64,000 nt of DNA from Phoronis australis (Eukaryota > Animalia > Phoronida). Positions 11,750-53,125 of this stretch are shown here, in pieces; positions within the stretch are counted from its first letter, which is position 1; each line of letters starts with the position of its first letter. A model generated the notes under the pieces. It was not told the origin of the DNA, did no database searches, and saw only the letters and a program-made list of their open reading frames with translations. The stretch covers positions 1 to 64,000 of the forward strand of contig NMRA01000634.1 of the NCBI GenBank assembly GCA_002633005.1. Reading direction: 5' to 3'. Made by a program: the position numbers and the translations under genes.

Positions 11750-12416
11750 AGAATTGGTTAAACGCACGACATTTTTCATTATCCACAGGCTTTATTCCGT
11801 CATGTTCATACCTTCGGAACAAAACTACTCTCAACTGAACATAGATAAAGTATCTTACCTAGCGACATAATTAAAAGACACACGATATTTCGAAACATAC
11901 TTGTTTCATTTTCAAGTGAAGATAAAATGACCCCAGAGCATAAGCTGATGACACACACAGTGAGACACGGCGGGTGTGAAATACTGCAAAGAATCACTAA
12001 TGAAGGGGGGTAACAGGAAAGTCACGCAAACAAGTGTAACGTGCGGCGCGACCCTGTTTGCTGCTCATTCAAAACAGGCTTCTCAAAAGCAATTAAAAGG
12101 GACTCTAATATTTTCAATCGCAGCACATCGTGCTCCACGTAGAGAAGTGACGNGCACATCGTGCTCCACGTAGAGAATTGACGTGTTTCCCAGAATTTCT
12201 TGACGGGTGATATTACACTGTGGTGGCATTACTGCGTCATTTTATCTTCACTTGAGAATGAAACAAGTATGCTTCGAAATATCGTGTCTTTTAATTAATC
12301 GCTAGATAAGTTACTTTATCTACGTTCAGTTGAGAGTAGAGTTTTGTTCCGAAGGCATGAATGCAACAGAATAAAGACTGTGAACAATGAAAATTGTCGT
12401 GCGTTTAACCAATTCT
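11750..12416. mobile_element. Foldback/MITE-like element with about 185-bp imperfect inverted arms
   Basis: 11750-11932 (agaattggttaaacgcacgac...gtgaagataaaatga) is the reverse complement of about 12236-12416 (tcattttatcttcac...gtcgtgcgtttaaccaattct). The spacer holds a duplicated 24-mer, gcacatcgtgctccacgtagagaa. Confidence 0.8.
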
Positions 12417-13570: not shown

Positions 13571-13605
13571 TATTAATGGGCCAATGTTTGATATCATATT
13601 TAGTT
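13571..13605 (+). promoter_or_regulatory. Possible core promoter (TATTAA about 31 nt before an Inr-like TTAGTT), or a splice acceptor before the ATG exon
   Basis: TATTAA at 13571-13576 and TTAGTT at 13600-13605, about 20 nt before the ATG. The same tttag could instead be a cis/trans splice acceptor. Confidence 0.3.
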
Positions 13606-13622
13606 GCGACTCTAAAGACGCT

Positions 13623-13671
13623 ATGGTTCGAACGTTTGTGTTGATATCGTTTCTTTTCCTACATTGTTACG
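13623..13671 (+). CDS. Exon 1: start codon and signal peptide MVRTFVLISFLFLHCY(G)
   Basis: ATG, basic residue, hydrophobic core, small residues at -3/-1; donor G|gtaggt is phase 1 and matches exon 2. Confidence 0.75.
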
Positions 13672-16600
13672 GTAGGTGAATGGTATGAACCCCTGGAAGA
13701 GGCGTGCGAAAGTTACGGAAATTTGTTTTAGTAAAAAGATGACGTGAAATTATTTAAAGATTCTGATAGTACATGAACGTGGCGTTTATACTGCGCTGAA
13801 ACAGAGGTCTGTAAAACGGAAACTCGTAGGTAATCGTTTGGGACGAGCTTAAAAGGTGTCTAGTCTTGAAGTATCGCTGAATTTTCATTATTTTGATATT
13901 TTGATATTTACCGAATATAAATCTGAAAAAATGTAGGTGTCACCGTATTGGTTTTATGGTAAGAACCGCCGTCGATTTTTATATAACGCTTAATTTTGAT
14001 GCCATACTACGTGTTTGCATTGAAATAGGAAAAATGTTAGGTTCATAGACTCAGTTTCTGAGCAATTTTATTCCAAACATTTTTACACAAGAATATGCAA
14101 TTTAGGCTACGAATACCCCGCTTAATTTTACTGGATGACGATTATCAGATACAGGTGTATCTCATAAAAACGCAGACCGGACAATGCGTGTTCCTTGACA
14201 CCGCGTCGTCAGCGCAGAATGCAAATTAGCTCCATTCAATTGCCCCAGTGAATGCGAGACTGAGCGTTCTCTCTGGCAAGCGATCAGAAATGACGAAACT
14301 AAGACGGGATTGCTGAATTGAAATATTTTATTGTGAAAAGTACAGTTGCGTACTATGTTTTGTTTTATTTCTCGCGTCTGTTATGGGTTCAGAGATAGAC
14401 GTCGTTTCACACTTTACACATTTAATCACTGAATGATACGTTAAGCAATGTATTAATTCTGATGTCAAAATCATTAATTTGAACGAGTTACAACTTAATT
14501 CATGTTCGTTGATGCTAACGTCTTAATTGAACAGTTTCATTATCTTAACAGGCTATTACTTTATAAAGTATTCGAGTAAATCCGTTGACACCAACCCTGG
14601 TGACGAAGAGACACACTGGGCAGTGACAGTGTCACAGTGTGAGCGCCTCTGTGAACAGTGGTCGCTATGCAAGTCATTTACCTACAGTGCTGCAGACGGG
14701 AATTGCACACTATACAAACAAGACAGGAACTACTTTATAGGGGCCGGAGATTATGTCACCCAGACGGGAGTCGACTTTCACGATAGGGGTAATATTGATT
14801 TTAATGTCATGGATTCTCATGAAGTTAATGAAGTGCAAGCTTAATCATTTCCTATAACATGCAACTGTTACAGTCTAACAGTTTATGTTATAAACTATTC
14901 AGGACATCCTTGGTATGGACTTCAGTGCATGATAAATATTAATTGTATGGTTTGGTAACCTGCTTGATAATTTTCAATAGGAAGTGGTGAAAGAAGTGTT
15001 CTTTTAAAGGCATATCGAGCCCTTCGACGGTGGGTGCTTTGGTAGCATGTGTAGCAATTTCGAAACCTTGTTACACTCGGTGACGATGTCGTTTCTTCAG
15101 AGTTTTGTTTTGACACGGGTCATAAAACATCAAGTCAGGAAATAAGGCGTCCTTACGTTATTTACTTTAAACTTTGAAATTTTTGCCTGCCAATGTTGGC
15201 TGAATATGCCTTGAACTAACTGCTGATAGTTGATTTAATATAATGTGTATGGTTTACGAGAGCTGGGAAGCATCGTAAAAATATCGTAAATGGACTGTGT
15301 ATTGAATAGCCATCTTGGTTGCTTTATGAGGGCATACAAGGCAGGTTTACTGGACTGCAGGCAGGAATTCCATCTCTTGCTGGTTTTCAATCGCCTACGC
15401 CTGTTGTCCAAAGTTTTGTTCACCATAAACTACTCCAATTGGCTATGCATTTCAGATACCATCAGGCACGGGTGCTGGGCAACCAGTTCCCAGTTGCATG
15501 AAATAGTCTCAAATAGCGACTCCACTATGTTCCCTAAATCTATTGCGTATTTGTGAATTTTCTATGTAAAACTCAATATTATTGAAAATAAGAAGGAATC
15601 TTTTCATGACACCTTCCTCTACAAAAAGCTGGATACAGCTGTGTTCACATTCCAAGCCTCGAATTCGACTTCCTCAACTGTCAAAGACAAATCATCATGG
15701 CAAGAACAGTGTATTTTGATCTGGTTATTTGAGAGAATAATACAATAAAGAAAAATATGTTCAGATGAGTTATTCGATTCATACTTTCGAAAAGGTCTAA
15801 TTATCTCACACGGAGAATGTTTCAGTGGGTTTTCGTAGTGTTTTCAAATGTGCTTAAGAAGATTGCACTAAGTCTTTCACTTATGGGAGTGTTTACATAA
15901 CGACCAGTTTCGAAGTGCAATGGGAGATTTCATGCTTTAAAATGAGCCAAAAAGATCGCTCCGATGGAGATTAATTAAGCTTCGCCTACGTTTCAGTTAA
16001 AAACTCGTCCTTAAATAAAATGTGGGTTCTGAACTTGGGTTTTGTTACAACAGACTCAGTCCAAACATGTTTCGAATATTCAAATACTTTGATTCTAGAA
16101 TCTACTATGTTATAAGTAGTCAAATTTTGAAAACGGGATTGCATGGCAGTTATGTTAAACAAATTTTTGATACCGTCTATCCAACCATTTCTACTAACAC
16201 AGTACTCCCTTAGAAAAACCTTTTTCAGTAACCTACCATTCCCTTTGGTCACTAATGCACATTCCATTTATTGCCTGATGCTGAGACCTGCAGTCTCGAA
16301 ACGAGCTAGAAGTGGTTTATTTTTTTGTTGTTTGTTATGTTTCCCGGCGTTTTGCCACATAGTTGCACACCTGAACAAAGGAGATTGTTTCGACACTACT
16401 GTACCGAAAAAAGTTTAGTCCGTTAGATGGATGTTACTTGCGTAATTGTCTAATCTTTTTATAGCGGCATTAAACCCTTACTTTCTGTAAAAACAAGTTT
16501 TGATTTGAGCCTCTTACCGTTATAAACTTGGCCTTTCTGTTCCTTACTCAGTTTAGAAGTGATCTCTGAACTGACAGATTATTTCTTCAGTGCAAACTCT

Positions 16601-19600
16601 CCGTCTGACCAGAAATAATAGCCAGTTTTTTCAAAGCCAAGAGATCGCACTTACTTTAACTAAGGAAAAATTTGAGTTTAAATTCATAACATAAAATGGC
16701 CAAAATAAATGTTTTGAACAGAGCACCTCCTACACCTACATCAATGTTCAGTTTACAGTCACTGCCGCTCCAAATTTCGAGATAACTCCCTCGGTAGCCA
16801 TAGTTTTCAACCCTCTCCAATAGCCGTGACTGTTGTCGAACTTCTCCACTAAGCACCCATAGTTTATGTATATCTCTAAACAAGCCAAATTAAATGGATA
16901 ATACGGCACAAACTGTCCCTCATGTGCGTATCTGTAATTGGTTTTTTGAAATCACCGATACGAACTTACTGATCACATACCCTATTTTCTTGATTTTAGT
17001 CACGAGCTGTTACTTCGAAAAAATTGTCGATAGCTCTTTGGGCTTTGTGAACAAAACTACATCTGCAGCGGATTACCTCGTTTGCCAGCAACACTGCCTT
17101 GATGAAACAACGTTTGACTGTAAATCAGTGAACTATTATACCAGCACGTCCACCTGTGAATTGAATCATGAAAATCTTGAAACTGTTACATCAGCCGGTC
17201 AGTGGAACCAGGATACAAGCTCACAGTATTATGACAAGATATGTCCAGATAATCGTAAGCACGATTTATCTTTACTTTTTCTCAAACGACATGCTAAATA
17301 AAGTTTTTGAATTGGTCAAACTCGGTATCTTTCTGTAATAGAAATCGCACAACTGACAGAAATGATTTAAAATCAATTTTGTGTTATGCATTAATAACAT
17401 CTATTGTCTTTAGGCTGAACGATAAGTAAAATTCAAGGGAAATACACGCAACCGTTAGAATTACGACTACGTGTACTTTGTCATTAGATATCTATGTGCC
17501 TGTGACAAAACTACAGAAAATATTGGACGAGCGTCGTGTTACGATAGGTTGTTTGGTCTTTGTTTATTACTGTACTTTCTACCAATGTATTCGGCCTCTT
17601 TAGTGAAGTAAGTGCACGGGTATAGTTCAATGCATGAGCTTGACAATTGTGTTTCACGATTCCTGAAAACATGAAACACCACTTCTCGTTGCATGGTAGC
17701 ATGTCAAAGCGGTTGGTTTACATGGCGCGGGCAGTGTTACAAGTTTGTCGCAGAAACAACTATTGCACAGTCTGGCAACACGTGGCTTAATGCTATCGAC
17801 AAGTGCACGGCGGAGTCCAGCGTTTTAACAAGTATAAACAGTCCACAGGAAATGGATTTCATAGCATCCGTTGCAACGTAAGTTTTTGTTTGTTCGAAGG
17901 AGTAAATATGAATGTAGAGTTCGATAAAAGATCCAGGATGTTTCAGCTCTGCGATCTCAACCAATTAGTCTATGACAAGGTGTTTATTCGCTTTAGACGT
18001 TTCCTGAGTTAAAATCAATTATCACTTTTACTCAGTTCATCAAAATCAATAGAAAGAATCGTTTGCTGACAAAACTACGTTAACTATATGGCTAGGTAAT
18101 CGATTGGGAGTAATACCTTGTCAAACATTTGTCCCCTTTGTTTACTATCAGCCTTTTATTATGTCTTCAGTGGCGTAGGAAGCACTTTTGTACTTTTTGT
18201 TCGGCAAGTGGCCGACGAAGTCGTAAGTGTAAATGAAGAGGACCTGGGAGGTATAATCCCTCCCGTAGAATTTTAAAAAATTAATCTGCAGTCTACAGAT
18301 CGCGAAACTCCTTTTGCCGTACTTTATGGAGAATATTGGTCCGGCCGCCATGCCTACACATGGGCGGCGCAGCACTGAAAAAAGTGGGGAGCTAAAGCCC
18401 CCTCAGCCTCGTGGTGCACCGCCTATAGATCATGTGCGGCGTAGCACTGTAAAAAGTGTGGGGCGATAGCCCCCCCCAAGCCCCCTATGATGCGCCCCCC
18501 CCCATGCAGTACAGGACTAATCCCAGGGGTCATGGTCTGTACAAGGAACTGAAGGAATGGAATGTCAACTCCCGCGCGCAACCCATAAATTTTAGTCTTA
18601 GCGCTTGAGACCCCAGGATTTCACGGTGCTAGCTACGAGAATTTGCAATGTGTATTTCCGGTTGTTCGCTCGACTAATTTGTAATCGAGTGCTGTAGTTA
18701 TCAAATCAAGCCTAATTTCATTGCTTCATTTTCATTTTGTTATTTTTGTTCATTATGAAATCGTCAAGCGAGATTCTTGAAGCACCGTGCCAGACAAACA
18801 TTGATTTCACGACAAAGTTAGGCAACAAACCCGTCTGGCCATTCGTTGTGCCCACTGACCCGTAGCTGTGAGTGGATAACGGGAGTAGTCTGACATCTGA
18901 TATCTTTTTTCAGCTCCAGTCATATAAAGCCCTCTGTATTGCGGTGATAATCGGGATGCTCCTTCACGACTCTTTGGAATATCTTTCAATATTTTGTAAC
19001 TTTACTATAAATGATGTCGGCGACCTCCTTTTGTTGAACTCCTGGTACTACTTAGTACTAGTACTAGTACTCAGTACTACTAATAAGTACTAGTGCATAC
19101 AATGCATGAGGTGATGTACCGGGCTTTATCAATTATCGAAAAACTGTTATGAAGGTAATATTCATGGTTTCATGACTGTGTTAACACTTACGTCGACAGT
19201 CTCATTGGTTAACAAATTTCTGCACTTATTGTTTGCGACAAACCTTTGTTGACATGAAACCTGATAAATCAGCTGACAAGTGCAAGGTTGCTTGCCTAGT
19301 GTGTTTTCAGTGCAAGACTTAACAAAACTGAAACCAAAAAAATTAAATTGCAGGCTGCCTATTGTCACTGAATGTATTTGAACCTAATAGGTATTTTTCA
19401 ATGAAATTTAATGTTATTCTACTCGGAAAACTATTACCAGCTATTCGAATTTCAAATGTTAATTTTAATTTTTCTTATATTATTTCATAACTCAAGTTTC
19501 AATTGCTTTAATTCTGATCAGGACCCACTGAGAGTACAGTATCCTCACAATGAAGAAGTTTCCGTCACGAATTAAAAGTATATCCTACTACTAAGGTTAG

Positions 19601-22600
19601 CCATTCAAAAATAAGACTGCTGTGAATCTAACAATTTTCTAGGATCACGTTTGACATTCAATTTTTGAGGAAATCGATATCTAAAAATACTGTAGTTGGC
19701 TAAGAGCTGCGAAAACGTTGACATGGTTACGCCTCAGATACGCCATCCAAGTTGTTGCGCAAATGGGAGATGGCAACGTTATCCCCTGACCCAGGCAGCA
19801 ATAATTCCTAGAGTCTTATGGTCTGCAAACGTGCGCTGTGAAATGTAACAATTCGTAAAATGTAACAACTGTTACATTTACGTCATTATTACATTTTACG
19901 TTGCTAACCCTCTCCTAAAATGTAACAAGTTGTTACGTTTTACGTAGTTGTTACATTTCACGTCGAATGCACATTCGAGAAATGTGCCATTGTTACATTT
20001 TTCGAAACCAACGTCATATTGCATAGAAAATGACCAAAATCACGAACAAGTGGTATCTGACACGGCCGGGGGCACTGGAGTATTTTGGACAAGGGGTGAC
20101 GCCCGAAAAACTTGAATACCAACTCTTTTAGAGAGCGGGATAAGACAAAAAAGTGACGCATTTAGAGATTAATTTGTATAAAAATGTACATTTTCGCACA
20201 GTCCTGATCCAGAAATTCAAGAAAGGCTCCTTTTAGATATAATTTTGTCGAAAATGGCACCATTTTGGAGAGTGTTGTTTCTGTGAAAAAAAAACACCCT
20301 TTTGGGAGCCACTTTTCGTATACCTCTTCTGTAGGAATGCACTCCAGACTGACACGACATGAATTTGGCTACCTATTATCACTTTTATTAGTATTACACT
20401 ACTATTACTGCTATTACTACCTTAACTGCCTTTACTGCTATTACTATCGTCATTACCATTACTCGTCTTCACTCTAGGTGTTATTATTATTTTTAATATT
20501 TTCAAATTTATTTAACGAGGACATAAAACATGTTTGGGAAAGTGCTAATACATCATGGTCCTCAAAGTTTTTAAAATCATCTCATTTATGGTTCAATCTT
20601 TTCATCGGGCTTTCCATAGTGGACAGGGAGTGCTATTCCAAAAGAATATTAAGGGGGTTCCTATATGTTCAGCCTTAACGATAATGTGAGAAACGTCTTG
20701 ACAACTATGGATGCAGAATAGGTCTACTTTTTGGAAAACAGGAGGTTGAGAATTAAATTCTTGTTTAGACGTGCATCAACTTCAAAATTTTATTATTTCT
20801 GAACTATTGGAAAGCACTGTATTGTTTGTAAATATAACTATATCTATCCGTAATTTGCTGCGAAGTGCATAATACAGACTGCAATGTTGTACTCGCGACA
20901 TCAAAACGTGAGGATAGCCACCGTGTAATCAATTTTATCTCTTGTTGAAAACATTCCTTTTCAAAGAACTGGGGATTTTTCGCGATGATGTTTAAGTTCA
21001 AAAACTGTGTTAAGTTGAACGCTGGAAACAAACATTTTTCGGGAACTAACCACTAGTTGGCTACGGTCACCGAATCATTAGAATATCTGGTAACAGACAT
21101 ATAAAACACGCAACCATCTTATGTTCTTGGAAAAACACAGTGATATAACAAAGTGATTTGAACAAGGTTTCATTGATAGTGGATTGTATGGAGCAAATAC
21201 GGCCAACGTCGAAGTCAGCCATGTTTAATACGAGCTCATGCAATGCATCAAAAGGGTTAATATAGCAAATACCCTAATCTGCGAGTTGCAACACTTCATG
21301 TCCATTAATAATAGAATTCCAATCTTTGTCTTTATTTATATGATTGTGCTTTTAACTAATGAACATTTGACCAAATAGCAATTTTAATAGAACGAGAAAG
21401 TGCATACTTTTGTAGTCCAAAAGGCCGACAGTCAGCTTTTTTGCCGAACTATTGTCCCTTTAAACTACCGGCCTGGACCAGGTTTGAGCAAAATGATCAT
21501 GTCATTTCAGAGTGCAAAGGATTTTCTATTTCCCCAGCTAGGCATCTCATTAGGTGTACGTGTCACGGTTTGATCTGTTGTTATCACCGCTATTTCAGAC
21601 AGGTTTGACATCATATGAACAATGGTATTTCTCTCAGATTTTAAGCTGTATAAACCACACTACTATACCGCCACTTTTTAAACTGTTGATTCGCCCCTTT
21701 CAAAGGCGATATTTTACTGTTGATTTGGAAAAATCTGTCAACATGTCGGCTAATAAATGCGTGCTTTTATTTCTTTCCACCACAATGTCTAAGAAATTGT
21801 CATTCGTGGTGGACAGAACACGTTGGCATCAGAAACTTTGGTTTTGCTCCTTTTGTGTGGAGCAGGGCAATTAATGCATTAGCGATGACTCCAAGGCAAT
21901 AAAACACTGGCCGAAATAAACCAAACTATCGTGAACTAAAACGGGAGTTTTTTGTATCCAATTGGCTTCCTAAATAGAATTCGCCATGAAAAGTTTTGTT
22001 ATTGTCGTTTGTTCCCGAAGAAATACGATAAATATTAGCCATATACGATGTCATTGTTGTGCTTACCAAGGACAGTGTGTTTACTGTAATGACGGGTAAA
22101 CAATTGGTTTATGACCTGCACGTGTCAACAAAAGATTGCAAGAACGCTTTTCGATTAAAAAACTTGATGCTTAAACCTGGAAATTGTTTCGTGTGGAGTT
22201 TAAACTGTACGCTTTACATTTTGACTATTCCATAAAACTACTCAGACACGTTAAAAAACATGGAAAGCACACAGGGACACATCTAAAAATTCGACCTGGC
22301 ATATTTCATCGAATTTCGTTCACCCAATCCGAGAAAGAAGGCGTTAAGTGTGTGTGAACGGCTTTCCTCCGTGTGAAAAATATGCAAACTCATGAAGTAT
22401 GGCGTCGCTATCGCAAAATGTAACAATGGTACATATCTCGCATTTGCATTCGACATAAATTGTAACAATCACATAAAATGTAACAACGTAAAATGTAACA
22501 ATGACAAAAAAATGTAACAGTTGTTTTATTTTACGAAATTGTTACATTTTACGGCGTATAATCGCTGCAACCGGTTGATAGGATCAGTAGTTTTGCTACG

Positions 22601-25600
22601 TGGCTCTTTAAAATTTAAAAAGAGCCTACAAATGTGTCACCATTGGGATAAAAGCGTATATCGTCAATTGTTACAGAAAACATTACCCGAACAACGAGTT
22701 TTTTATCGGCCTGTCATACGGTGTCCATGGTAACGAGTGGATTGACGGGTCTGCGACCTTCTACACAAACTTCGACCATGGTGAGTATAATCCTCTTCTG
22801 AACAGCGTGAGACCTTCGCATGACCAAAGACATCGACAGTCTTTGCAAACATTTGATGGTTTGTTGCTGATAAGATATCATTCACACATGTTTCTTATTA
22901 ATTTTTGCGCTTACTGTTTTTGAAATGCCGCAGCGCAGCTTCCCTGGATTCAACCCTCCTTTTTGCGGAGGTGGACAAACGCATTGCATGATTGATTTAG
23001 TTGCCGAAATGTAAGTCTCTTGACAAACATCCTGAGTTCCTGAGCTGCGTTGCACATATGAAGAACGGTTCATCCCACCCCTCGCGGCTTTTCAACTTTT
23101 GTGTCCGCACTGCGAAACAAATTCCAGCTTTTTGGATCTATAATTACTAATAGTGAACCGATTTTGATGTAAAATGTAAAACAGAGGAGTGCCGGCATTT
23201 TGGGTAAGAACTGCAGAATCAAAGAAGGCTTGGCACTATTAGGAAGTGACTAGAAGATCACATCGAAAGGGCGGATCTCAAACTGCTAAAAATCTTGTCT
23301 TAGGAGACAAATCGAGCCGTAAAACCAACCAACGAACTTGGATCCTGGTATACATGTTGTGAAGCTACACATAATAGACTCACCGTATTAGTTTCAAATC
23401 TCTACGACTTTTCCACCCGAATAATACGTATCCAACAAGAAGTTTTTTAATGATGGCAACACTTTATTTCCATCATATCTTTAAAATATCACTCAAGTGC
23501 AATTCCCAAAATGTCCATATTTACAAAACAAGTCGTTTACATATGAATGCTTATACAGCGCATGTTTTGGTGTAGCTTGGACATACAAGTTTTTCGCTTC
23601 AGCTTTGAAAACGAGGTCAACGTTATCAAATTTGGCGCCTTTGGTATAAAACATGAACAAAATGTGAATCTTGCTTCTTCAGATATCGTGCCAACGACAT
23701 TCTCCAATTCGAACTTTTACATTTCTTGTAGTGACCTTGAAAATGATGGCCAAGTTCTCCAAAATCGACTGGCACTTGCAGTTACTCACCTGCGCCTTGG
23801 CACAAAGTACAAATACAATCTAAAGCTTCGGTCTTGAGTAATGCCGTCAACAACATTTTCCCGCGTTGAAATTCGTTTCCTTGGAGAGAAAATGTAAGAA
23901 TCAAACTAGTGATGACACACTAATTCCTTCTGTTTTTTCAGGTCATGGAGTTACCAAGAAAGTTGTTTGTTACCCAAACCAACTGTTACTGAAATGTCCT
24001 ATTGGCAAAGTTCTTCGTATACACAAGGCAAATTATGGACGAACGTCATCTAATGTTCCAAACTGCGAAGTGATTGTAAGTGCATGAAACATAACAAAAG
24101 CGAGTTAAGTTCTACGCTCAAAGGTGTAGTGCACAGGCTGCCAGGGGTAAAACAAAAATTAAAGCATCGTGGGTACAATGGAAATACACGGGAAGCTGGA
24201 TATTTGAGAAGCCGTATCAGCAGCGATATACATCGCTCGCGCGGTTAAGATTTGTGACGATAGGGGGTCGATAAGTGGTGACTAAAGTTCAGTTAAATGA
24301 AACAGTCCCAAATTTGGACTCGACAAAGATTTTTAAATCGACTGCGTATTTGTGACTTTCTTTTTTCACAGATGTATGTTTCTATCATTTTAGGCTTATT
24401 TTCAGCTCCTGTTCGGCTAATGACATTTTCTAATAATGCAACGCAAAACTGAGCCCAGTGAGTTCAGTTATAATAAATAGGTACTTAGTCCTTAAATTTA
24501 GGGCATTGCTTGAAATGATCCCTATTTATTTTCAATAATATTGAAAAGTCAACACAGACTTCACTTCTGATTTGCAACAAAGTCATAGATTGACTTAGTA
24601 ATGAAACTAAAACAGCATAAGAAAGGACAATCGGCGTTTTCACAAGTCACCAAATCCGCAATGGATTTTGGGAACTTAGTTGAGTCTCTATTTAGGACTG
24701 TTTCATACAACCAGGCACAGACAGTTTTGTGGCTACCCGTGTGGTGAAATTGGTGGTGACCAGACGGTGATTGGTAGCAACTGGGTTTGCGGATACTACA
24801 TGACGTGCCTTGGACCTAAAGTAGCCTTGTTTTGACTGGCTTTAGGCTATGCAGAATCCAGAAAAATGCTCAATTTTGGTTAAATTTGGAACTTCATATC
24901 TCAGAAATGGCTTGACGTATTCCCATGAAATTTTATATCGTGTTTTATGCACTTTTCTCCAAAACGGTGTTCAGAATTAATTTTAAAATGTTCCACCTTT
25001 TCAGGAAAGTCTATCAAAAATAGGACTTTTCAGTTTTTTTTGAAAAAATAAAGTTGTCTTAAACGGAAAACGAAATAATATTTCGAAGAACGGTAACTCA
25101 GTACGGCGTTTTTGAGATGTTATCTTGAACATTTACATCATAGGAAATTTGCACGTTATTGACTTCGCTGTTTTACTTCGAATGTACGCCTATTGTTCCA
25201 CGAAATTTTACTTTTTAGAAAATATGTTCTAATATATATATATATATATTATATTCTGTGGTTGTTTACGTATTTGGCTAAATGTGCACTTTTGTCTATA
25301 AGGTCATGCTTAACCTCAATGACATTTTACTTAACCTCAATGATATTTGTGCTGCATTGTTTTCCGGTAGAAACACATGGTCGACTGTATCTCTCCGTCC
25401 AGCTTCACCATTATTCACAACGCTTGTCACAACAAGACTTCGTGCTCAGTTGAACAATCAACCGCAGTGTTTGGCGATCCCTGTGTTGGAGAAAGAAAAT
25501 ACATCGAAGTGGACTACGACTGTGTTGAAGGTATACCTAGATCATGTTCCGAAATCATTTTAAGGCCACATTAAAGACACTCTTTCCTGTTTTTGCAATT

Positions 25601-28600
25601 TTAGAACGAAAATTTCATTAACCAAGAGATGTCATTGAAATAGGAACAGTTTGTAAATTACAACCCTCAGCTGTTGACCTGATTGTGTATTCGGAGTGTT
25701 TACCAGTTCTTACAATTTATACCGCAAACTTCTTCTTACATCTTAGAACAAACGTGGTTTCCATTTCAGAAGTGAACACTTGTGCCGTGTTGGACCCGTC
25801 TGCTGGTTTCGCATGGAAAGGTGTGTCGTGTAACAAATCCAATGTTGGATTTGTATGCAAAAAAGGTGAGGAAGTCTGTTTGATCATAAACAATGAATTC
25901 TTCCAATGAATTTTTTGTAAAACACGTATTCCTCTTTGAGAGAATTCTGTACAAATGATCAGCCAAAATAAAAGTGCCCATGAAACGCTTCATCGAAGAA
26001 ACGAAATTTTGATTTAGAATACTTATTGCTATGAAATTGGTCTGAGCTTGTTTCTTACTGAGATGGGGAAGGATTTCTTAGCTTGCAACGACTTGATATT
26101 TTGTTGTTCGTTGAGACTATTCTCGGCGCATGAATTGACACGTCAACATTAGAAGATACAGTATCTCGCAGAGCTTGTTCTCAGGCAATAACGCATTGTC
26201 AATTTTTGATGCCCTGCACTGACCCCCACTTATAACTAACATTACGGCGTTTTCCCGTTGCTCCCAACTTGTTCGATTCTATAGCCCAACAACAAGATGG
26301 GAAGTTTACCCCTGTATCCAATATCTTACACGATTAGTTAACTCCATTCCGGCATTTATGGTTTGAGGGCCAGCTCTCTTTTGTTCGATAATTGCTCTTA
26401 TCTCCACTAAGATCGTATCTACAATGACTGGGCTGTGCTGTTAAAAAAGGTTAAGTTACAACATATTTGAACATAAACCAATAGCATTTCTTCGTAAAAT
26501 GGTGGTCATGTTTAGTTTTTGAATTGACAAAATCGCCCAACTGCAACCGAAGTTACGACAATCTATTCTTTCCGAGTACACCAATTCACTCCGAGTTTGA
26601 CTGTGTTCACATGTGGTCTGTAATAAGCCTCGTAGATAATTATCCTGCTTGTTGTCATAACAGACAAAAGAGTGTGCTAGGCAGTTAACAAAGAAGCTAG
26701 ATTTTATCACATGCTCAGAACCCCCTACGTCCGGTAAAGTCACTGAACGGTAAAACGCTCTCATGAGGAACAGTTCGAGACCAGTTTGATAACTGTAAGT
26801 GGTCTCAATCTTAAATTTGTGTTTTCTGAAGGAGGGTGTCTTTATTTAGCGCTTTAAACGGGCAAGGTTGTGAGATATGTGTGAACCTGACATTCGAACT
26901 CCTGACATCAAAATCAATCTACGAATCCACAGAAGTCTATGTGTCCTTGACCTCTGTCCTCAAAATCAGTTGATGTCATCTACATGTCGAAATTAACGTA
27001 CACCTGGCTTAAAGACCGCTACTCTGGGCGTTTTCTAATCAACAATCCAATGTGTCCAGGGTGAAAATCTCTGTGACCTTGAAAAAGTTGGTTTGCTGAC
27101 ATCAGCACCTTCAGGGGAAGGGATTTAAAGGCCCCGTTCAACTTCCATACCCGGCCAAGTTTGAGGACCATATCCTCAGAGTTGAGTTAATGTTCGGAGA
27201 ATATTTTCGTTGTGAATGTCAAAGTGCAGTTGCACAATCTTTACTTACCGATCTTAAAATCAATAGGGCCCATCCCCCTATGGGTGTCTGAATCAATCTT
27301 TAAACAAATTTGATGAACAGGATCTCANNNNNNNNNNNNNNNNNNNNNNNNNNNNNNNNNNNNNNNNNNNNNNNNNNNNNNNNNNNNNNNNNNNNNNNNN
27401 NNNNNNNNNNNNNNNNNNNNNNNNNNNNNNNNNNNNNNNNNNNNNNNNNNNNNNNNNNNNNNNNNNNNNNNNNNNNNTTATTTTCAGCTCCTGTTCGGCT
27501 AATGACATTTTCTAATAATGCAACGCAAAACTGAGCCCAGTGAGTTCAGTTATAATAAATAGGTACTTAGTCCTTAAATTTAGGGCGTTGCTTGAAATGA
27601 TCCCTATTTATTTTCAATAATATTGAAAAGTCAACACAGACTTCACTTCTGATTTGCAACAAAGTCATAGATTGACTTAGTAATGAAACTAAAACAGCAT
27701 AAGAAAGGACAATCGGCGTTTTCACAAATCACCAAATCCGCAATGGATTTTGGGAACTTAGTTGAGTCTCTATTTTGGACTGTTTCATACAACCAGGCAC
27801 AGACAGTTTTGTGGCTACCCGTGTGGTGAAATTGGTGGTGACCAGATGGTGATTGGTAGCAACTGGGTTTGCGGATACGACATGACGTGCCTTGGACCTA
27901 AAGTAGCCTTGTTTTGACTGGCTTTAGGCTGTGCAGAATCCAGAAAAAATGCTCAATTTTTGCTAAATTTGGAACTTCATATCTCAGAAATGGCTTGTCG
28001 TATTCCCATGAAATTTTATACCGTGTTTTATGCACTTTTCTCCAAAACGATGTTCAGAATTAATTTTAAAATGTTCCACCTTTTCAGGAAGGTCTATCAA
28101 AAATAGGAATTATCAGATTTTTGTGAAAAAATAAAGTTGTCTTAAACAGAAAACGAAATGATATTTCGAAGAACGGTAACTCAGTACGGCGTTTTTGAGA
28201 TGTTATCTTGAACATTTACATCATAGGAAATTTGCACGTTATTGATCTCGCTGTTTTACTTCGAATGTACGCCTATTGTTCCACGAAATTTTACCTTTTA
28301 GAAAATATGTACTAATATATATATATACATATACATATACATATACATATACGTATACGTATATGTATATGTATATATATATTATATTCTGTGGTTGTTT
28401 ACGTACTTGGCTAAATGTGCACTTTTGTCCATAAGGTCATGCTTAACCTCAATGACATTTTACTTAACCTCAGTGACATTTGTGCTGCATTGTTTTCCGG
28501 TAGAAACACATGGTCGACTGCATATCGCCGTCCAGTTTCACCATTATTCACAACGCTTGTCACAACAAGACTTCGTGTACAGTTGAACAATCAACCGCAG

Positions 28601-31600
28601 TGTTTGGCGATCCCTGTGTTGGAGAAAGAAAATACATCGAAGTGGACTACGACTGTGTTGAAGGTTTACCTAGATCATGTTCCGAAATCATTTTAAGGCC
28701 ACATTAAAGACACTCTTTCCTGTTTTTGCAATTTTAGAACGCAGTTTGTAAATTACAGCCCTCAGCTGTTGACCTGATTGTGTATTCGGAGTGTTTACCA
28801 TTTCTTACAATTTATACCGCCAACTTCTTCTTACATCTTAGAACAAACGTGGTTTCCATTTCAGAAGTGAGCACTTGTGCCGTGTTAGACCCGTCTGCTG
28901 GTTTCGCATGGAAAGATGTGTCGTGTAATAAATCCAATGTTGGATTTGTATGCAAAAAAGGTGAGGAAATCTGTTTGATCATAAACAATGAATACTTCCA
29001 ATGAATTTTTTGTAAAACACGTATTCCTCTTTGAGAGAATTCTGTACAAATGATCAGCCTAAAAAAATGCCCATCAAACGCTTCATCGAAGAAACGAAAT
29101 TTTGATTTAGAATATTTGTTGCTATGAAATTGGTCTGAGCTTGTTTCTTACTGAGATGGGAAGGATTTCCTAGCTTGCAACGACTTGATATTTTGTTATT
29201 CGTTGAGACTATTCTCGGCGCATAAATTGACACGTCAACATTACAAGATACAGTATCTCGCAGAGCTTGTTTTTAGGCAATAACGCATTGTCAATAGGCC
29301 TTTTGCGAGTTTATAACAATAACGCGAGATTATGTGAGACTTAACTGTGACGTCACGGGAAGTGGGGCAAAAGCTTGTCGTTTGGTCATTTGCCCAATAC
29401 GGTAGCAGAGTGTATTCTGTTATTGTCTTCGAGTTTTTAGCCGTTTAGTTCGAAAAATGTCCAAAAAGCATTGCTGTTATGGCAAATGAACTTCAGATTC
29501 GCACTACAATACGTTCTATCGCGTTCTGTACTAATTTCGTCCCGTGTATTTTAAACGGGCGGTAGGCGAAATCCGCTCACTGGTAAAGTTTTCACCTCGT
29601 CGAAAATACATTCTACACCTAAAATTAGCACCTAAAAGGCTCTTACTTTCTTCAGTGACTCTTTCTGCTTCTAAGTATATCTTCGATGAAGCATATATAC
29701 GGGAATTCAGGTGACTTAGGCGAAGAATTCCAACTCCACTTTGTGGTTACTGTTAACTTTGTCCGCGCGCGCGATAACCACAATCAAGTATTTCAACTGA
29801 GTCAGGTGAGTATGAGGCAAAGGCTAGCGCGAGACTGAGCGAAGCGCGAGATCTGGCGCGTGACCTGGCGCGTGACACTTGCAAAATAGCATGAGAAAAT
29901 ATCAAGTGAAATTTGTAAGATTTGTGTCCCTTGGACTTTTTGTTCGTCAACAGGCGTGATTTCACGTAACTTCCTCAAAATGGCGGCTAGTGAGAGAAAC
30001 TCGAGAGAACCGCGAGGTTTTCATGAATATGCTCAAGTTATTTGTAGACTAAATTGTGTCCAGAGTCAGGGTATGTGTTAATTATAACTTCATGTGCACA
30101 TATGCATGTTTGATTTGATTTTATTTGCTGTATTTTGAAGTGAATATCTTTTTATGGGGATACACTATCGCCCCTGTATGCATGTGCCTAGCGCTTTTCA
30201 GGCCTAGAGCGGGTTAAGTTACAATTTCAGTCCGTTCACAGCTTCGCACAACATAACAAGTTCACATTTTCTTCGTCCATTCACAGTTATTCCACGACCC
30301 ATCTACCATATCTTAAGTTCTTTTAACGTTATAGGCGTAAAATTCACCATAAGAACTCCAGTAAGTTTTAGCGTGTGTAGCAAAGACTCGGGGCAAAACA
30401 AGAGCAATATAGCGGGTTTTGCCCCCTTTCCGGTGACGTCACAGTGACTAACGAGAAACTCGCAAGTGAGCTATTTTTGATGCCCTGCACTGACCCCCAC
30501 TTATAACTAACATTACGACGTTTTCCCGTTGCTCCCAACTTGTTCGATTCTATAGCCCAACAACAAGTTGGGAAGTTTACCCCTGTATCCAATATCTTAC
30601 ACGATGGATTAATTCCATTCCGGCATTTATGGTTTGAGGGCCAGCTCTCTGCTTTTGTTAGATAATTGCTCTTATCTCCACTAAGATCGTATCTACAACG
30701 ACTGGGCTGTGCTGTTAAAAAAGGTTAAGTTACAGCATATTTGAACATAAAACAACAGCATTTCTGAAATCTTCGTCAAATGGTGATCATGTTTTGTTTT
30801 TGAATTGACAAAATCGCCCAACTGCAACCGAAGTTACGACAATCTATTCTTTCCGAGTACACCAATTCACACTGAGTTTGACTGTGTTCACATTTGGTCT
30901 GTAATAAGCCTCGTAGATAATTATCCTGCTTGTTGTCATAACAAACAAAAGAGTGTGCTAGGCAGTTAACAAAGAAGCTAGATTTTACCACATGCTCAGA
31001 ACCCCCTACGTCCGGTAAAGTCATTGAACGGTAAAACGCCGTCATGAGGAACAGTTCGAGACCAGTTTGATAAATGTAAGTGGTCTCAATCTTTAATTTG
31101 TGTTTTCTGATGGAAGGTGTCTTTATAGGCGCTTTAAACGGGCAAGGTTGTGAGATATGTGTGAACCTGACATTCGAACTCCTGACATCAAAATCAATCT
31201 ACGAATTCACAGAAGTCTATGTGTCCTTGACCTCTGGCCTTAAAATCAATTGATGTCATCTACATGTCGAAATTAACGTACACCTGGCTTAAAGACCGCT
31301 ACTCTGGGCGTTTTCCAATCAACGATCCAATGTGTCCAGGGTGAAAGTCTCTGTGACCTTGAAAAAGTTGGTTTGCTGACATCAGCACCTTCAGGGGAAG
31401 GGATTTAAAGGCCCCGTTCAACTTCCATACCCGGCCAAGTTTGAGGACCATAGCCTCAGAGTTGAGTTAATGTTCGGAGAATATTTTCGTTGTGAATGTC
31501 AAAGTGCAGTTGCACAATCTTTACTTACCGATCTTAAAATCAATAGGGCCCATCCCCCTATGGGTGTCTGAATCAATCTTTAAACAAATTTGATGAACAG

Positions 31601-34600: not shown

Positions 34601-37600
34601 CCATGCATGACACATTCTGTTCATCGAAGACGCCACAGCAAAACCTTTGGTCTCCAGCAATTACTTTTCAACGAGCTTTTCTTTGAGGAGATGACTCCAT
34701 GTCGCTTTCATTTTTATCTCTGAAATGTTAGGTAACAACAATTTCACTGTCAATAATGTAAAATTGACTTTCGGATTCTTGAAACTTAGTGAAACCACTA
34801 GCTTCGTCGGGTGGACTGGGCGGGGTGGGGGTAACTGTAAACTCACAGTGCTACGAAAGTTAGCAATGTGGAATGTTGTTTATCATGGCTTCCCATTGGT
34901 CAAAGTAATGAAACCGACGTCATTAACATTCAGTCATTCCCATCGGTTGAAATTTTGGAAACCCCTTACAGTTTACTGTTACGTAGTATGGCGACCACCT
35001 TTGACTTGAATAGTTGGAATTTCCCAATCCCATGGCGAAGCCCAACCAAGTACAGTGCATTGAAGTCGTCTGTAAGTGGTGGCCATGTGATCGATAAACT
35101 TCCGATCAAGCCTGCACATTCATGCCCACACACGGAATTCCGTGTGTGGTTCATCATGATTCCATAGGGCCACTTTTAGTATAGGTGGCGCTGCGTAGAG
35201 AAACACCCCTAATTACAGCACCCCTTGCAACAATACAGCAAAATGAACCACGTAAACGAGCGAATTTCGTAAGCAGGCGACAGTTTCTGTCAACTCAGAG
35301 CCCCGGGGATCGTACGTACTTTCCGTATTTTCCATAGATCTCACGGTACGGTATGGACTTAAAGAATTGAATATGAAGTAAAACTTGGAAGTACGAGTAT
35401 TTAGACCTCACAGATACCCTGGAAGCAAAGATCATGGACAACTTATTAGCCACTGCCGAGTCATTTAGGTGTCCCGAGCGCAAGGCGCCAGCTTTCCACG
35501 CCGTCTGTTGTGAAGAGGTTGCTCCACATGTACACATTAATAGCAAAATTTATTCCCTAAATGTGAAAATATGGATTCTGTACACGTCACGTTATTAACT
35601 GTGAAGTGCGGTAAAGTAGAATCAATCATAAACAACGGTAGAAGCCGTATACAATGGTAGAAGCCGTATTTCACGGTTGGTGAGCAGTCTCCTGGTGGAG
35701 TAAATTCGCGAGTGCAACGATTGAATTCGTTCATTTGGGTTACCCAAATCATCGCCCCAAGGTGTCATTCCTGAAAAAGCAGTTTTACTGCTCTAAAAAT
35801 TTACCGATGAAAATTTCGAACCACGGTGATCAGGCGGCTATTTTTGGGCCTCGCTGAAGTTTCAATCAGGGTCATCATAAATAGGTCAAGATAAACAGCG
35901 TCCCCGGCCAACAAAGTCAGCCAAAATCTAATTCAAATCCATCGAAAACGTTTTTTGTGGATGCATACAGTGTATGTATTCTGAGAGCTAAGGTCTTTAC
36001 AGGAAATTGCGACCTAATTAAATATCAAGTATGTGTATTTTTCTGAAACTATCGTCTGCTTGCCAGTCTCCGTCGCTAGCGGTCGTAGCGTAAAATCTCC
36101 TTTTTGCGATACAGTCCCTTACCTCAAGTTCAGAAAATCGGCAGAGATTCCATCGTTATTTTCCAATGCTGTGATCAACACTGGGAAATGTTTATATGAT
36201 AATTCACAGTCCAAAAGCTAAGATACGAAAATAGACGAAGAAAACTAAGAAATTCATCGAAACTGAAATGACACACGGCTACACAAAGTCTGTTCAGGGA
36301 ATTTTTCAACTTTTATAGTCTCGGATGGATTGTTTCTAAGTTTCCGACAAACTTTCACAGATCAATCTTGTCGCTTAACCGGCTTGGATACCGTATTTGG
36401 CATACAAATGACATCATATATAACAACACGCTGGAGCACACGGCAACAAGGTTTTGCGGCGACCATGCAAATAAGTCCATATACAGTATATGGGATAAAT
36501 AGGTTATCCCACATCCATAGGAATACTACTCGAAATCATTTCCCAACTCGACCTTCGGTCTCGTTGGGACATTCCCGAATGAATTCTCGATAGGATATGG
36601 CAGTAGTATTTCTATCTATGTGGAATAGCCTATTATATGAGAGAGAGANNNNNNNNNNNNNNNNNNNNNNNNNNNNNNNNNNNNNNNNNNNNNNNNNNNN
36701 NNNNNNNNNNNNNNNNNNNNNNNNNNNNNNNNNNNNNNNNNNNNNNNNNNNNNNNNNNNNNNNNNNNNNNNNNNNNNNNNNNNNNNNNNNNNNNNNNNNN
36801 NNNNNNNNNNNNNNNNNNNNNNNNNNNNNNNNNNNNNNNNNNNNNNNNNNNNNNNNNNNNNNNNNNNNNNNNNNNNNNNNNNNNNNNNNNNNNNNNNNNN
36901 NNNNNNNNNNNNNNNNNNNNNNNNNNNNNNNNNNNNNNNNNNNNNNNNNNNNNNNNNNNNNNNNNNNNNNNNNNNNNNNNNNAGAGAGAGGCTTGGCGGA
37001 GGGAGGAAGGGAGAGAGGAAAGAAAGGGGGAGGGAAGGAGGCGGGGAGGGAGGAGACATGAGAGATCTTCAAAAGCAAAAGCCACTCCATTGAGGGTCCC
37101 TGTACAATACAATACAATGCAGTACGATATAATACAATGCAGTACGATATAGTACAATGCAGTACGATACAATACAATTTAAGTAAGCAATAAAAATACA
37201 AGACGGTAATTATTAGGCCCCATTTACATATATTTGACAAACAGTGAACGATTGAACGACTGACATGTAGAATCAACAGCCCAAGTACTTCATTAAATGA
37301 ATAAACTTGACACCTGATTACAAATAACTAGCTGCTCCCCTACTATAAAACAACACTTTTTGTCTTGCAAAGGTTTTGGTGTAGTTAACGAATGTCGTTT
37401 TGCAGATTTCCCGACAGCTACAGACTGCTCGTGTGGTTACTGCAATGCAGATTTTGAGATTACCAACGAAAACACGTGCAACTGTTCCTCTGCCACGACT
37501 GATTGGGCCACAGCACAGTGCTGTAGGATCGTATACACGCCGAGATCAACAGGTTGGTTTTTACGTTTAGCTGGTGGTTAAAGTGCGCGATCTTGTCAAA

Positions 37601-40600
37601 TCCGCTATAAAAAGTGTTACGGACCATGGTCTGGGTTTGTCATTACAATGTCGTGTTAAGCATTATTTTTTGAAAATACGTTCATAGTAAAGTAGTGGAA
37701 CGGTTTTAAAGAACGAACAGATCTGTCTCGTTTTCAGAGGCTGTTCTTACAGGATTCTGCTGATTCCGCTAGACCACCCTTCTTTAAAAGTGATTGATTC
37801 TATTGACGATGTTAGTTTTGGTCCAAATAGGGCCATAAGCAGTTGAAACCCCAGCACGACTGTTGTTAACATTATGTATTCACATATTGTATACTTGCGA
37901 CCCTGTTGTTGGGTTTTGGTGAACTTGAGAATGTTGAATTCGACTTCATAAAAACATTGGATTTTTGTCTTTCTGTAAAAGCATAAAGTTAACAGCAATT
38001 GTGCCGTGACTGGTTCTTGATGACGACTTCCGTCTTTTAGATGTTTTACCCGGTTCATCAAGCTGAACGGCGAAGTCAGTCATGAGAAGCTAAATATGTA
38101 ATAGAGCCTGCACCTCATATTTTCACATCACGAGTTTTATTTGAATTCCAGTCAGTGACTATACGATATTTATTGTTGCTTCTACCATTGATTTAATGCA
38201 ACTGTAGGTGACCAACTTATAGAGAAATACTTGACAATAGACGGCATCGTTATCGACGGACACGACAATTGGACACCTTCGGGCGTTACGTCAGAGGATG
38301 AATGTTTGCAAGCGTGTGAAAATCAGGTGACTTTCTTCTTTCAAAAAGTGCTTTTTATGCGCTTTCAAAACACACCCTGCTGGTACATATCGTCTGCCCT
38401 TCTTGGCTGGATGTCGTCCACCAGTCGTTGCTTATTTGTCTTGAAAGTTATTTTTACTGATCTTTAATTGCTGGAATTTGACACAGATACATGTGAGAAA
38501 GGGCCAGCAACACTTGATTTTCAAATGGACTACAGTGTGTTAGCCATTTTAACGTTCAGTGAGGTTGTCCATGTCATTCCATTACTTGTAACAGATACTC
38601 TACTACACTATTTCACGGGTGCCGCAACACTGAAATAAGTGGGGAGAATATAGCCCTCCCCCAGCCCCACTATGCTGCGCCGCCCAACCACATGTATTTT
38701 AGATATGAGGCAAAACGAGAATCCACATAAAATTAGCTGTAATTCATTGCGTATTCCTGTTCACAGAACAAGGTGACTCATTTATTTGACATTCTAAACT
38801 GGTGGATACGGCTTAACGCATTTTTTGCTCTCAACACGGAGAGAAATGGTTGGGAGGTTGCCAGCGCCTGAGACTGTTCGACAGTGTCTACCTAAATATT
38901 TTTCATATCAGTGAACACTGATGACGCGTAATACACTTGCACTTTACTTAGCTATCTCCCGTCTAGATATGTAGATGCGCCCAATGAGGCCAAAGCCACG
39001 TCCCTCTTGCGAAAAAGTCACAGAATCTATTGGTTTCCCGCCTAAATAGGGTTTGAATTGAGTGCCGTGGACACAAGAATCTTGCTAGTAAAGTTAGGGT
39101 GCTTTGCTTGTGAAGCATTGCGATAGCTGACGAAGCTTTGCGTTTCGAGAGTATATTGCGTCTCTGGAACAGGCTCAAGGCAGCTGTCTCGCCTTCCTTA
39201 ACTTGAGGCACAGAAAACACCTGAGTGTGCTGGCACCAACTATACACGAGTCCACGATTTTGAATTGGGTATTACAGAATAATGAGTTGACTAATTAGTT
39301 CATTAATCTGTCAATTAGTACATGAAGGGTTTTATTAGTATTCTCTGTTTTGTTGCATTTTGGTAACACTCTTGGTTTTTAGAATGAAAAAATGTTTTAA
39401 GCCTGTCCAGTATGCAAAATGATAATAAAATTTATGAAGTAAATAATTTATATTTTGCTTGTGGTATAATCATACACCATCACGAAATGAGAAAGGATTT
39501 TCTAATGGCATGACTCTTGTGCCATTCTAAGCTTAATTTATTTGTACTAACCAAACATTTCACCCTGGGCTCTATGTTTTATTGCAAGGACAACACCGGA
39601 AGGAACGAATGCAAACAAATCCCACGCATGCGCGACACCATCTCAGTCACGCGAGATCGAAGTTGGTATTCCATGTCTAGAGTTGAGCTGACTTCCTAAT
39701 GTAGAATACCCATCCTTTTTTCTCTCGATTACGGTTCTATCTCTCCACCTGCGACATTATTTTCTCATAATTGCGATTTTTCACAAATAGCCGAGGCCAT
39801 CGGCAAATTGTACGTGTAACAACAAAACACCTACAAGCGTACGCCACTTGCCATGGTCTCCCTTAAAGTATCGTTTGATTATTAGGTCGGGTGTAATTCT
39901 GTTGAGTTCAAGTCGTCTGATAGCACCTGTCGACTGAGTGGGTCCGCAATAAAGCATGTCGGCCTATCAGGGTTACTGCAACAACAGTCGGGATATACGT
40001 ACTACGAGAGGCTGGACGGGGAAGGTGAGGATGTGTAAACCATCTCAGAAAATGTATTCCTTCATGCCAGTTCTGCACCACTAGAATTATTGCAATTATT
40101 ACGATTTGTATGCTGTTAGCGTTAAATACAAAGAAACGAGGCCAGGCCATTTTCAAGATATTAACCTTAGTAGTCATGCTCACAGACTCAGAGGACTCTT
40201 CAATGGCCAACTAGACGCGAAGCATGTCTTTGAATAGGTGCACATCTTAACAGAAACGGTGCTTATATGATGATGTTTTCGTATTACTGTTTTCGGCATT
40301 AAGTGCACACCAGAACTGTCAGTTGCGATGCCCTACGTAGCAATATGTTTTAATTACTGAAGTCTCTGTAAGTTCAACAGTGTTTAACATGACTTTGCTT
40401 AGACTTTTTATTAACTGACATCGCGCCTTAAGTTATACGCACTAATAACCTACGCGTTACTTGTCTGCAAGTATTTACTGACACGGGGCTACAAATAGAA
40501 ACCCGTTGAGCACAAATTCTTTGGACTAAAATCTGCAGTTGGAACTTTACCTTTGGAATTCGCGATGACCCTGAAGCAAAAATAAGTTGCTGGTACAACT

Positions 40601-46600: not shown

Positions 46601-47890
46601 GATCATTAGTGACTGGGTTTGCCCCCTACAAGCTACTGGATTATATTGTTCCCTTCACTGGGAATTTCTTTGTATTTGTACTTAGTAAAAATGCAGATCC
46701 CTGGTTATACTGAATATACATTTTACCGAGCTCCAGTGTACATGTAAGTGCTGTTCCCTGGCGTGTATTTATTATCCAAATAACAAGAGGAAGTGACGGG
46801 AATTGCACCTGTCCTACTCGATATTGAACCTAATCTCTGTCGGTCATTCATGTTTCCTCAATGGAAATGAGAGCAGAACCAAGATAATGAGCCCTTTACG
46901 TCATTTTCTGTTGTTGCGAGGATAGCAATAACAAGAGACCAATTCATTAACACAAAAAGTACTTCCAACATAACCAGATATCTGTGGATTTGCTATAGGC
47001 CACATCAAAACAGTTGCTTCCCATTTTGAAGGCGATGAATTGTTTGAAGCTGCTTGCAAATGCACGTTATCAATACTGCTTTTCATTTTTTTTCCAGCTA
47101 AAACTTTCATATGCCACATAAGTTACTCAGATCGCTTTGCAGTATCGGCATACCTAGCGGACAGCGCGTATTTCGAGCATTTTATTTTTGACAGTTATCG
47201 AGGTAAGTATCATTGTTATTATGTATGTGTCAGTTACCTGGCTCCTCACGCTTTGCATAAATTTTATTACATGTATTATGTATAAGTCCTTCCACAGTCT
47301 TTTCGGAACCTAGTGACTTTTGACTCCGATTGGATATTGCAACGCCTCTCATCAGTCAACGTTGTTGACACATAACCACACATTCCCATTGCCCAAATAT
47401 AATGCTTGAGGTGATACTGCAGTTGTCACGCGCCTAGATACATGTATGTGCTCTCTCACATAACATCCTGATCACCTCGGGTATTTTCGTGGCTTCAAAT
47501 TTTCTCTCAGAGGTGAACGTTGTCTGCACATGAGCGAAGTTCAGTCATACATCATTGTCTTTCAAACTGTAGGACGATTAACCGTGTGACTAAAGTTCGC
47601 ATATGCACAAAACACCCGACGTTTTCCGAAAGATACATCTTCCGAAAAACCTCTAGTATTTTCGCATCCCTTGGATGTGTTTCATGTCAGCTTAGGTGCC
47701 AACTTAAATCTTGACAGCAAGTCATGTGACTCCCGAAATGGAAAATGACATCAATGCTCTGGGATTCCCAAGTGATAAAAGGCTTAAAAAGCTTGGTTGA
47801 AGTCGTACCTATCTCTTGCCCGAATCCATCGACTATAATGACGAAGACAGAAGACAATTCCGCAGGTGTTGCGGATGCGTTTACACACAT

Positions 47891-47964
<74 letters not shown>

Positions 47965-53091: not shown

Positions 53092-53125
<34 letters not shown>

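Follow-up and report, generated by a model that had tools for sequence, protein, structure and literature searches.

Introduction

In PKD1L2 and sea urchin SpREJ3, a C-type lectin-like domain (CTLD) and a SUEL domain lie side by side. These members of the PKD1 family hold one CTLD and one SUEL per extracellular protein (PMC1934368); an earlier first-pass annotation had also remarked that the two domains occur together in REJ/PKD1L-type proteins. SUEL domains are also found in receptors such as latrophilin and EVA-1/EVA1C, where the 8-Cys fold is kept and substitutions of sugar ligands are common, and according to the latrophilin study such receptor-type domains have been argued to bind non-carbohydrate ligands (PMC2430599). 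Here we describe a gene of the phoronid Phoronis australis that, like PKD1L2 and SpREJ3, combines one CTLD with one SUEL, and in which the SUEL very likely interrupts the CTLD. The gene lies in a window of 64,000 nucleotides, the whole stretch of DNA that was analyzed (assembly GCA_002633005.1, contig NMRA01000634.1, positions 1 to 64,000 of the forward strand). All coordinates are positions in this window, and all features described lie on its + strand.

Exon Structure and Domain Assignment

The unit is encoded by five exons, which we number 4 to 8. Exon 4 (17700..17877, phase 1-2) carries the first part of the CTLD, with the N-terminal Cys pair, the Cys of helix 1, and helix 2. Exon 5 (22677..22780, phase 2-1) carries the middle part, with FFIGL, WIDGS, and YTNF, and its 3′ end falls where the EPN/QPD loop would start. 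There follow the first part of the SUEL in exon 6 (23942..24075, phase 1-0; three Cys and ANYGR) and its second part in exon 7 (25371..25530, phase 0-1; five Cys, FGDPC, and KY), after which exon 8 (25770..25865, phase 1-1; three Cys) supplies the last part of the CTLD. All five exons have AG/GT ends and share a single open frame, confirming the exon positions and the host–guest junctions, 22780/23942 and 25530/25770, of the first-pass annotation. Spliced together they give an open unit of 223 residues with 14 Cys, six in the CTLD parts and eight in the SUEL, and a gene model covering the signal exon through exon 8 is 404 amino acids long and free of stops. The SUEL module thus consists of two exons bounded by phase-1 introns at both ends (class 1-1), and its exons have no start or stop codon of their own. 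The region 12154-27327, which holds exons 4–8, is free of assembly gaps. In exon 7 (25371-25530) a second frame is also open over the full length in both copies of the exon described below, probably by chance.

Two features could have dissolved the nesting: a CTLD C-terminal exon hidden in 22781-23941, and a second CTLD start before exon 8. Both were sought and neither was found: scanning the introns for motifs, searching them by tblastn (queries: the exons themselves and four natural CTLD proteins), and enumerating AG–GT intervals gave no hidden CTLD exon.

We ran the Pfam scan exon by exon, on 25 exon pieces of the window rather than on every open reading frame. Exon 7 matches SUEL_Lectin (33-80, E 7e-13) and is the sole exon of the unit above the curated cut-off; exon 6 matches the start of the same family (1-22, E 0.004), exon 4 the start of Lectin_C (3-35, E 0.005), and the second copy of exon 8 its end (81-107, E 0.06). 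No Pfam family matches exon 5 or the first copy of exon 8. In searches of the PDB, exon 4 has many matches to the start of CTLDs, exon 5 a weak match to the WIGL part of a mannose receptor carbohydrate-recognition domain (E 9), exon 7 matches to rhamnose-binding lectins and latrophilins, and exon 8 a weak match to the end of a CTLD (struthiocalcin-1, 102-129, E 0.013). In the ESM Atlas, exon 7 retrieved generic SUEL clusters only.

Six Cys (the four of the CTLD core and the N-terminal pair typical of long-form domains), FFIGL, and WIDG stand in CTLD order over exons 4, 5, and 8, and exons 6 and 7 form the intact SUEL/RBL domain (Pfam PF02140) that the first reading had recognized, with eight Cys, ANYGR, DPC, and KY; its third Cys, after YGR, comes two residues later than usual. 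We also built a CTLD profile of 127 positions from 14 natural CTLDs out of six proteins. With the SUEL removed, the model aligns to positions 11-122 of this profile with a score of 47.0 bits. In the full model the match falls into two parts, 11-89 (residues 20-95) and 95-122 (residues 193-222), with the SUEL between, and the SUEL therefore occupies the place of the EPN-type loop. Exon order, frame, phases, Cys pattern, and split profile match together bear out the proposed nesting of SUEL in the long loop of the CTLD, which we regard as very likely real. The same evidence supports a discontinuous CTLD with the SUEL at the long-loop/EPN position and three predicted disulfides, Cys35–Cys221, Cys196–Cys212, and Cys1–Cys12 in the numbering of the 223-residue unit.

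Sugar-Binding Residues

The WND motif on strand beta4 is a Ca2+-binding motif of CTLDs. At its place exon 8 has WKG, and the second copy of the exon has WKD; this difference between copies is the “(G/D)” of the WK(G/D)VSC previously written for the gene. In the long loop, EPN or QPD is the motif of Ca2+-dependent sugar-binding CTLDs (PMC10377782). The CTLD described here has neither, with the insert present or removed, a lack already noticed at first reading; the SUEL stands in place of profile positions 90-94. Both features expected of Ca2+-dependent carbohydrate recognition, the EPN/QPD of the long loop and the WND of beta4, are thus missing, and we infer that the CTLD, whether it carries its insert or not, would be unable to bind Ca2+ or sugar at the usual site.

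The SUEL has also lost residues that matter for sugar binding in its relatives. In latrophilin-1, the Glu after the first Cys makes two hydrogen bonds and is needed for sugar binding; its change to Asp or Gln lowers binding about 80-fold, and its change to Ala or Arg abolishes it (PMC2430599, Table 1). Sugar contacts of SUL-I include Glu7, Asn71, and Asp76 (PMC10377782). We compared the nested SUEL with 291 full-length domains from 121 of the best 150 of 1694 SUEL matches. Directly after its first Cys the nested domain has Tyr, against Glu in 251/291 and Tyr in 0/291 of the others, so that it lacks the Glu expected at this +1 position in rhamnose/galactose-binding SUELs. The Asn ligand before FGDPC is Thr here (Asn in 230/291 others, Thr in 8/291). 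The Tyr, Gly, Lys, and Asp ligands are retained, and the pocket Gly is adjoined by a Glu found in 0/291 other domains.

The first-pass annotation had proposed that the CTLD serves as the scaffold on which a different, Ca2+-independent lectin is displayed. With Tyr for Glu and Thr for Asn in the SUEL, this proposal is not supported: its function is doubtful because the SUEL has Tyr for the required Glu and the CTLD lacks EPN/QPD. Canonical sugar display by the nested SUEL appears unlikely on these residues, and the nested pair would likely be a protein-recognition or scaffold/spacer unit, not a lectin displaying a lectin.

Expression and Constraint

RNA evidence came from four runs (X1–X4) chosen by species label, with about 18–19% of each raw run used for mapping. 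Splice joints were listed from 3 reads upward, and numbers of junction reads below that threshold are arithmetic from rounded depths. Expression is very low, and most aligned reads are intronic repeats. Depth on the exons falls solely in the first-mate-minus column and ends at splice sites; it is sparse on exon 4 and is seen on exon 7 in both X1 and X2. On exons 5 and 8 it ends at the donor, and on exon 6 the 59 letters of X2 begin at the acceptor.

The letter counts of X2 can be resolved into single reads. At junction 4-5, 96 + 55 letters make one 151-base read (the end of exon 4 has 94–98 letters), and at junction 5-6, 92 + 59 letters make another. There the last bin of exon 5 holds 29 letters and the first bin of exon 6 holds 31, where 30 + 30 would be expected with the shared G shifted one place, and the total comes to 151 with the 28 further letters of exon 6 and the 63 of exon 5. 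Over exons 7 and 8, 297 letters fit two junction reads (80 + 71; 48 + 98, with about 5 left over), and no read is left over for a skip from exon 5 to exon 8. For the two host–guest junctions, 22780/23942 and 25530/25770, for which RNA junctions had been anticipated, the X2 counts therefore fit one read and two reads, respectively, but neither was listed as a joint, each lying below 3 reads.

Part of the unit is present twice. Self-BLAST finds a second copy of 24396-26203 at 27478..29295 (+ strand), with copies of exons 7 (28504-28663) and 8 (28865-28960) only. In addition, 26202-27327 recurs at 30473-31607, so that duplicated blocks flank a 150-base gap at 27328-27477. Introns mismatch between the copies by 2–4%, and the second copy most likely represents the other allele, which the assembly did not merge and placed next to the gap. 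About 1.2 kb between the blocks (29296-30472) is present in the second copy only and looks like a heterozygous insertion between unmerged alleles. Tandem duplication of exons 7 and 8 as extra coding exons was considered and rejected: exon 8, leaving in phase 1, would run out of frame into the exon 7 copy, which enters in phase 0.

The copies differ in exon 7 by five silent changes and one replacement (P = 0.0017 against neutrality). The changes are mostly silent, and the SUEL has therefore been kept as coding sequence. The nested unit is apparently real, expressed, and constrained.

The Surrounding Gene

The probable first coding exon (13623..13671, + strand) has an ATG followed by a hydrophobic, signal-peptide-like stretch and ends in phase 1. 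Of the ATG exons in 1951-14500 that are hydrophobic and end in a good donor, it is the best candidate. An ATG further upstream, at 13584, would use the same donor, and no RNA depth was seen over 13623-13671. Two PAN/apple exons, both phase 1-1, precede the nested unit at 14552..14788 (Pfam PAN_1, E 1.8e-09) and 17000..17254 (PAN_1, E 9e-11).

The probable rest of the gene extends over 37406..59902 (+ strand), in exons that are mostly phase 1-1. Those recognized by Pfam include PAN exons at 38208, 41365, 43367, 49420, 53372, 57655, and 59661, the last with the stop, at 59902, and ephrin-receptor-like repeats at 52220 and 52588. Those at 38208-38326 and 43367-43513 encode half PAN domains, and a candidate second half for the one at 43367 lies at 47098-47202. 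The second half of the PAN domain at 38208 (phase 0) was sought and not found, and the link of 37406..59902 to exon 8 is therefore presumptive. Two further phase 1-1 exons (37406-37552 and 50235-50369), related to each other, have six Cys in the pattern C-x-C-xx-C ... C-x-C ... CC and belong to no known family; they are possibly an undescribed small module. The first has no match in Pfam or the ESM Atlas, and the second matches Resistin weakly (E 0.08). No transmembrane exon was noticed in 37406..59902, and the gene product is probably a secreted multi-PAN mosaic protein. Outside the described exons the window holds fragments at 1924-2191 and 51482-51697 (both +) that we take to resemble the C-terminal zinc-binding end of a LINE-type retrotransposon ORF2.

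Origin of the Nesting and Alternative Readings

From phases and residue patterns, we think it probable, though well short of certain, that a 1-1 SUEL module sits in the long loop of an intact, discontinuous CTLD, with the SUEL on top and a likely role in protein recognition or spacing. A two-exon 1-1 SUEL module would most likely have entered a phase-1 intron of the CTLD long loop by exon shuffling; alternatively, the module may have brought its own introns. Neighboring modules are nearly all 1-1, and a module of this class landing inside a domain instead of between domains would be in frame and nested. SUEL exons of other animal-like loci (e.g., L001 and L003) also end in phase 1 right after the last Cys. 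Tolerance of the insertion would be explained by the peripheral position of the long loop and by SUEL ends that are predicted to lie near each other, joined to the host by linkers of only about 6 and 4 residues. The latrophilin SUEL has an antiparallel sheet beta1–beta5–beta3, with its pocket at the beta1–beta2 turn and before beta5 (PMC2430599). Strands beta1 and beta5 are adjacent in this sheet, and the SUEL ends should therefore lie together and make the domain an easy guest, with both ends predicted at the pole opposite the binding pocket. The nested unit would then bind protein or act as a spacer in the multi-PAN chain.

Several observations weigh against this reading. No joint at any exon junction reached 3 reads in the four runs; the 6-7 junction is seen in none of them and the 5-6 junction as one inferred read in one of the four. 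X1 covers exons 4, 7, and 8 with no depth on exons 5 and 6, and X3 and X4 have no depth on exons 5–8. The test of selection on exon 7 involves six changes in total, and the exon 8 copies differ by two silent and two replacement changes (P = 0.22). Some invertebrate CTLDs, SPL-1/2, bind sugars without EPN/QPD (PMC10377782), and loss of the motifs therefore makes absence of sugar binding likely rather than proven. Finally, no orthologue was found to show conservation with exon 7, five-exon, or PAN queries or among metagenome loci, in searches that depend on shared words and whose blanks are therefore weak. The exon 7 query gave one candidate and no match; the five-exon alignment, on a natural SUEL–CTLD template, recovered the template and one SUEL protein only from 2347 candidates, with exon 4 misaligned; and the PAN alignment found 2 unrelated PAN proteins among 7989 candidates.

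The host could display a SUEL that still binds sugar without Ca2+, perhaps through an altered pocket and with another glycan preference. The eight Cys, ANYGR, FGDPC, KY, and the Tyr, Gly, Lys, and Asp ligands are retained, exon 7 is constrained, the pocket would face away from the host, and, speculatively, the unusual Glu by the pocket Gly could replace the lost one. Yet Tyr has replaced the Glu after the first Cys and Thr the Asn ligand, and in latrophilin even Asp or Gln in place of that Glu costs binding about 80-fold (PMC2430599); we consider a working lectin rather unlikely. Exons 6 and 7 could also be an optional cassette, with a splice switch between a compact short-loop CTLD (exon 5 joined to exon 8) and the SUEL-bearing form. 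Skipping them is in frame and leaves the CTLD complete, with its 47.0-bit match to nearly all of the profile, and short-loop CTLDs without Ca2+ ligands exist in CBCP and group V (PMC514892). However, the X2 letter counts are accounted for without a 5-8 read, at a depth too low to speak against a minor form, and depth on exon 7 is at least that on exon 8, which makes the cassette unlikely. A more elaborate proposal, also rather doubtful, is a splice-switchable receptor head in which exons 6 and 7 would swap a compact CTLD for a SUEL-bearing CTLD that binds a ligand of neither parent fold. As part of the same doubtful proposal, the SUEL pocket would have been rebuilt, with Tyr in place of Glu, Thr in place of Asn, and a new Glu next to it, and the gene might record a natural domain insertion by exon shuffling with both introns still present.

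If the insert broke the CTLD, the CTLD parts might be an unfolded remnant or be closed by a swap between two chains. In favor of this, the host is a divergent CTLD, with most exons below the Pfam cut-off, and exon 8 is without significant constraint. Against it, the CTLD sequence on either side of the insert retains its six Cys and the core Trp and aromatic motifs, and the SUEL ends should lie near each other; we hold a broken host to be very unlikely. The nesting could, lastly, be an artefact of the assembly or gene model, with SUEL exons that are misplaced or come from another gene. The adjoining region is mis-assembled or duplicated, and no annotated protein of such layout was found. Nevertheless, exons 4–8 lie in a single gap-free stretch, exons 7 and 8 are adjacent in both copies, phases agree at both ends, read counts fit junctions 5-6 and 7-8, and the SUEL exons lack a start and stop of their own, so that an artefact seems extremely unlikely.

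The preferred reading, a SUEL module within an intact CTLD, would make the gene a readable example of exon shuffling that builds a nested rather than a beads-on-a-string protein, a 1-1 module having come to lie between phase-1 junctions within a domain. It would show that the long loop of a CTLD can accommodate an entire disulfide-rich domain of 97 residues. For annotation, such nested domains give split, sub-threshold matches and get missed, and the arrangement is relevant to protein design too. On present evidence it reveals no new mechanism of sugar binding, and the case so far consists of a single gene in a single genome.

Comparison with Known Systems

A SUEL nested in a CTLD occurs in 0/150 of the best SUEL matches (best 150 of 1694, in a ranking that favors multi-SUEL proteins). 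Six of these 150 have a CTLD, uninterrupted in five: proteins of Ptychodera flava (P0059), Branchiostoma (P0029), Dimorphilus (P0001), and Triplophysa (P0120), and P0014, combine CTLD and SUEL in one chain like the gene described here, but unlike it keep every CTLD uninterrupted. P0094 (KAG8003040.1) was considered as a nested case and rejected, being a “partial” fish model in which the CTLD never resumes; its truncated CTLD is fused to a headless SUEL, and it is probably a chimeric gene model. Among metagenome loci, 0/80 are nested, and the only CTLD piece among them, in L076, is complete. The literature searched, in which coverage of subscription journals is small, yielded no paper that describes a CTLD with a SUEL inside it.

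CTLDs that host other domains are another matter. We take the ECOD groups 209.1.1.0 and 209.1.1.1 to be C-type lectin groups. In the ECOD table of a 2026 survey of domain insertions, groups 209.1.1.x appear as both host and guest (PMC13114784, supplement 2). The table has 35,481 rows of 48,551 events, and its rows match the stated totals of 19 (209.1.1.1) and 8 (209.1.1.0). As hosts, 209.1.1.x fill 16 rows, with guests from 2006.1, 10.1, 390.1, 264.2, and 209.1 itself (PMC13114784). Host gaps are 55, 130–155, 195–235, 345, and 450 residues, and among the rows listed none is a single-guest gap of 90–110 residues; the table gives no insertion site, so that use of the long loop cannot be read from it. 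The suggestion that the nesting is without precedent therefore holds in part: hosting of other domains by CTLDs is already tabulated (PMC13114784), whereas SUEL as the guest was not found elsewhere.

In PKD1L2 and SpREJ3 the two domains are listed as separate, whereas here the SUEL interrupts the CTLD, and the present gene is built from PAN repeats. Among the 25 exon pieces of the Pfam scan, PAN and ephrin-like repeats were present and REJ, GPS, and PLAT domains absent, and no membrane segments were seen. The SUEL of mouse PKD1L2, like the nested one, is predicted not to bind sugar (PMC2430599). Receptor-type SUELs share the substitution of sugar ligands, but are terminal or tandem and usually have Asp for Glu, whereas the SUEL here is inserted and has Tyr. 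Without its SUEL, the host CTLD would resemble the group V natural killer (NK) receptors and CBCP/group XVII, which are short-looped and Ca2+-free (PMC514892); unlike theirs, its loop holds a whole extra domain.

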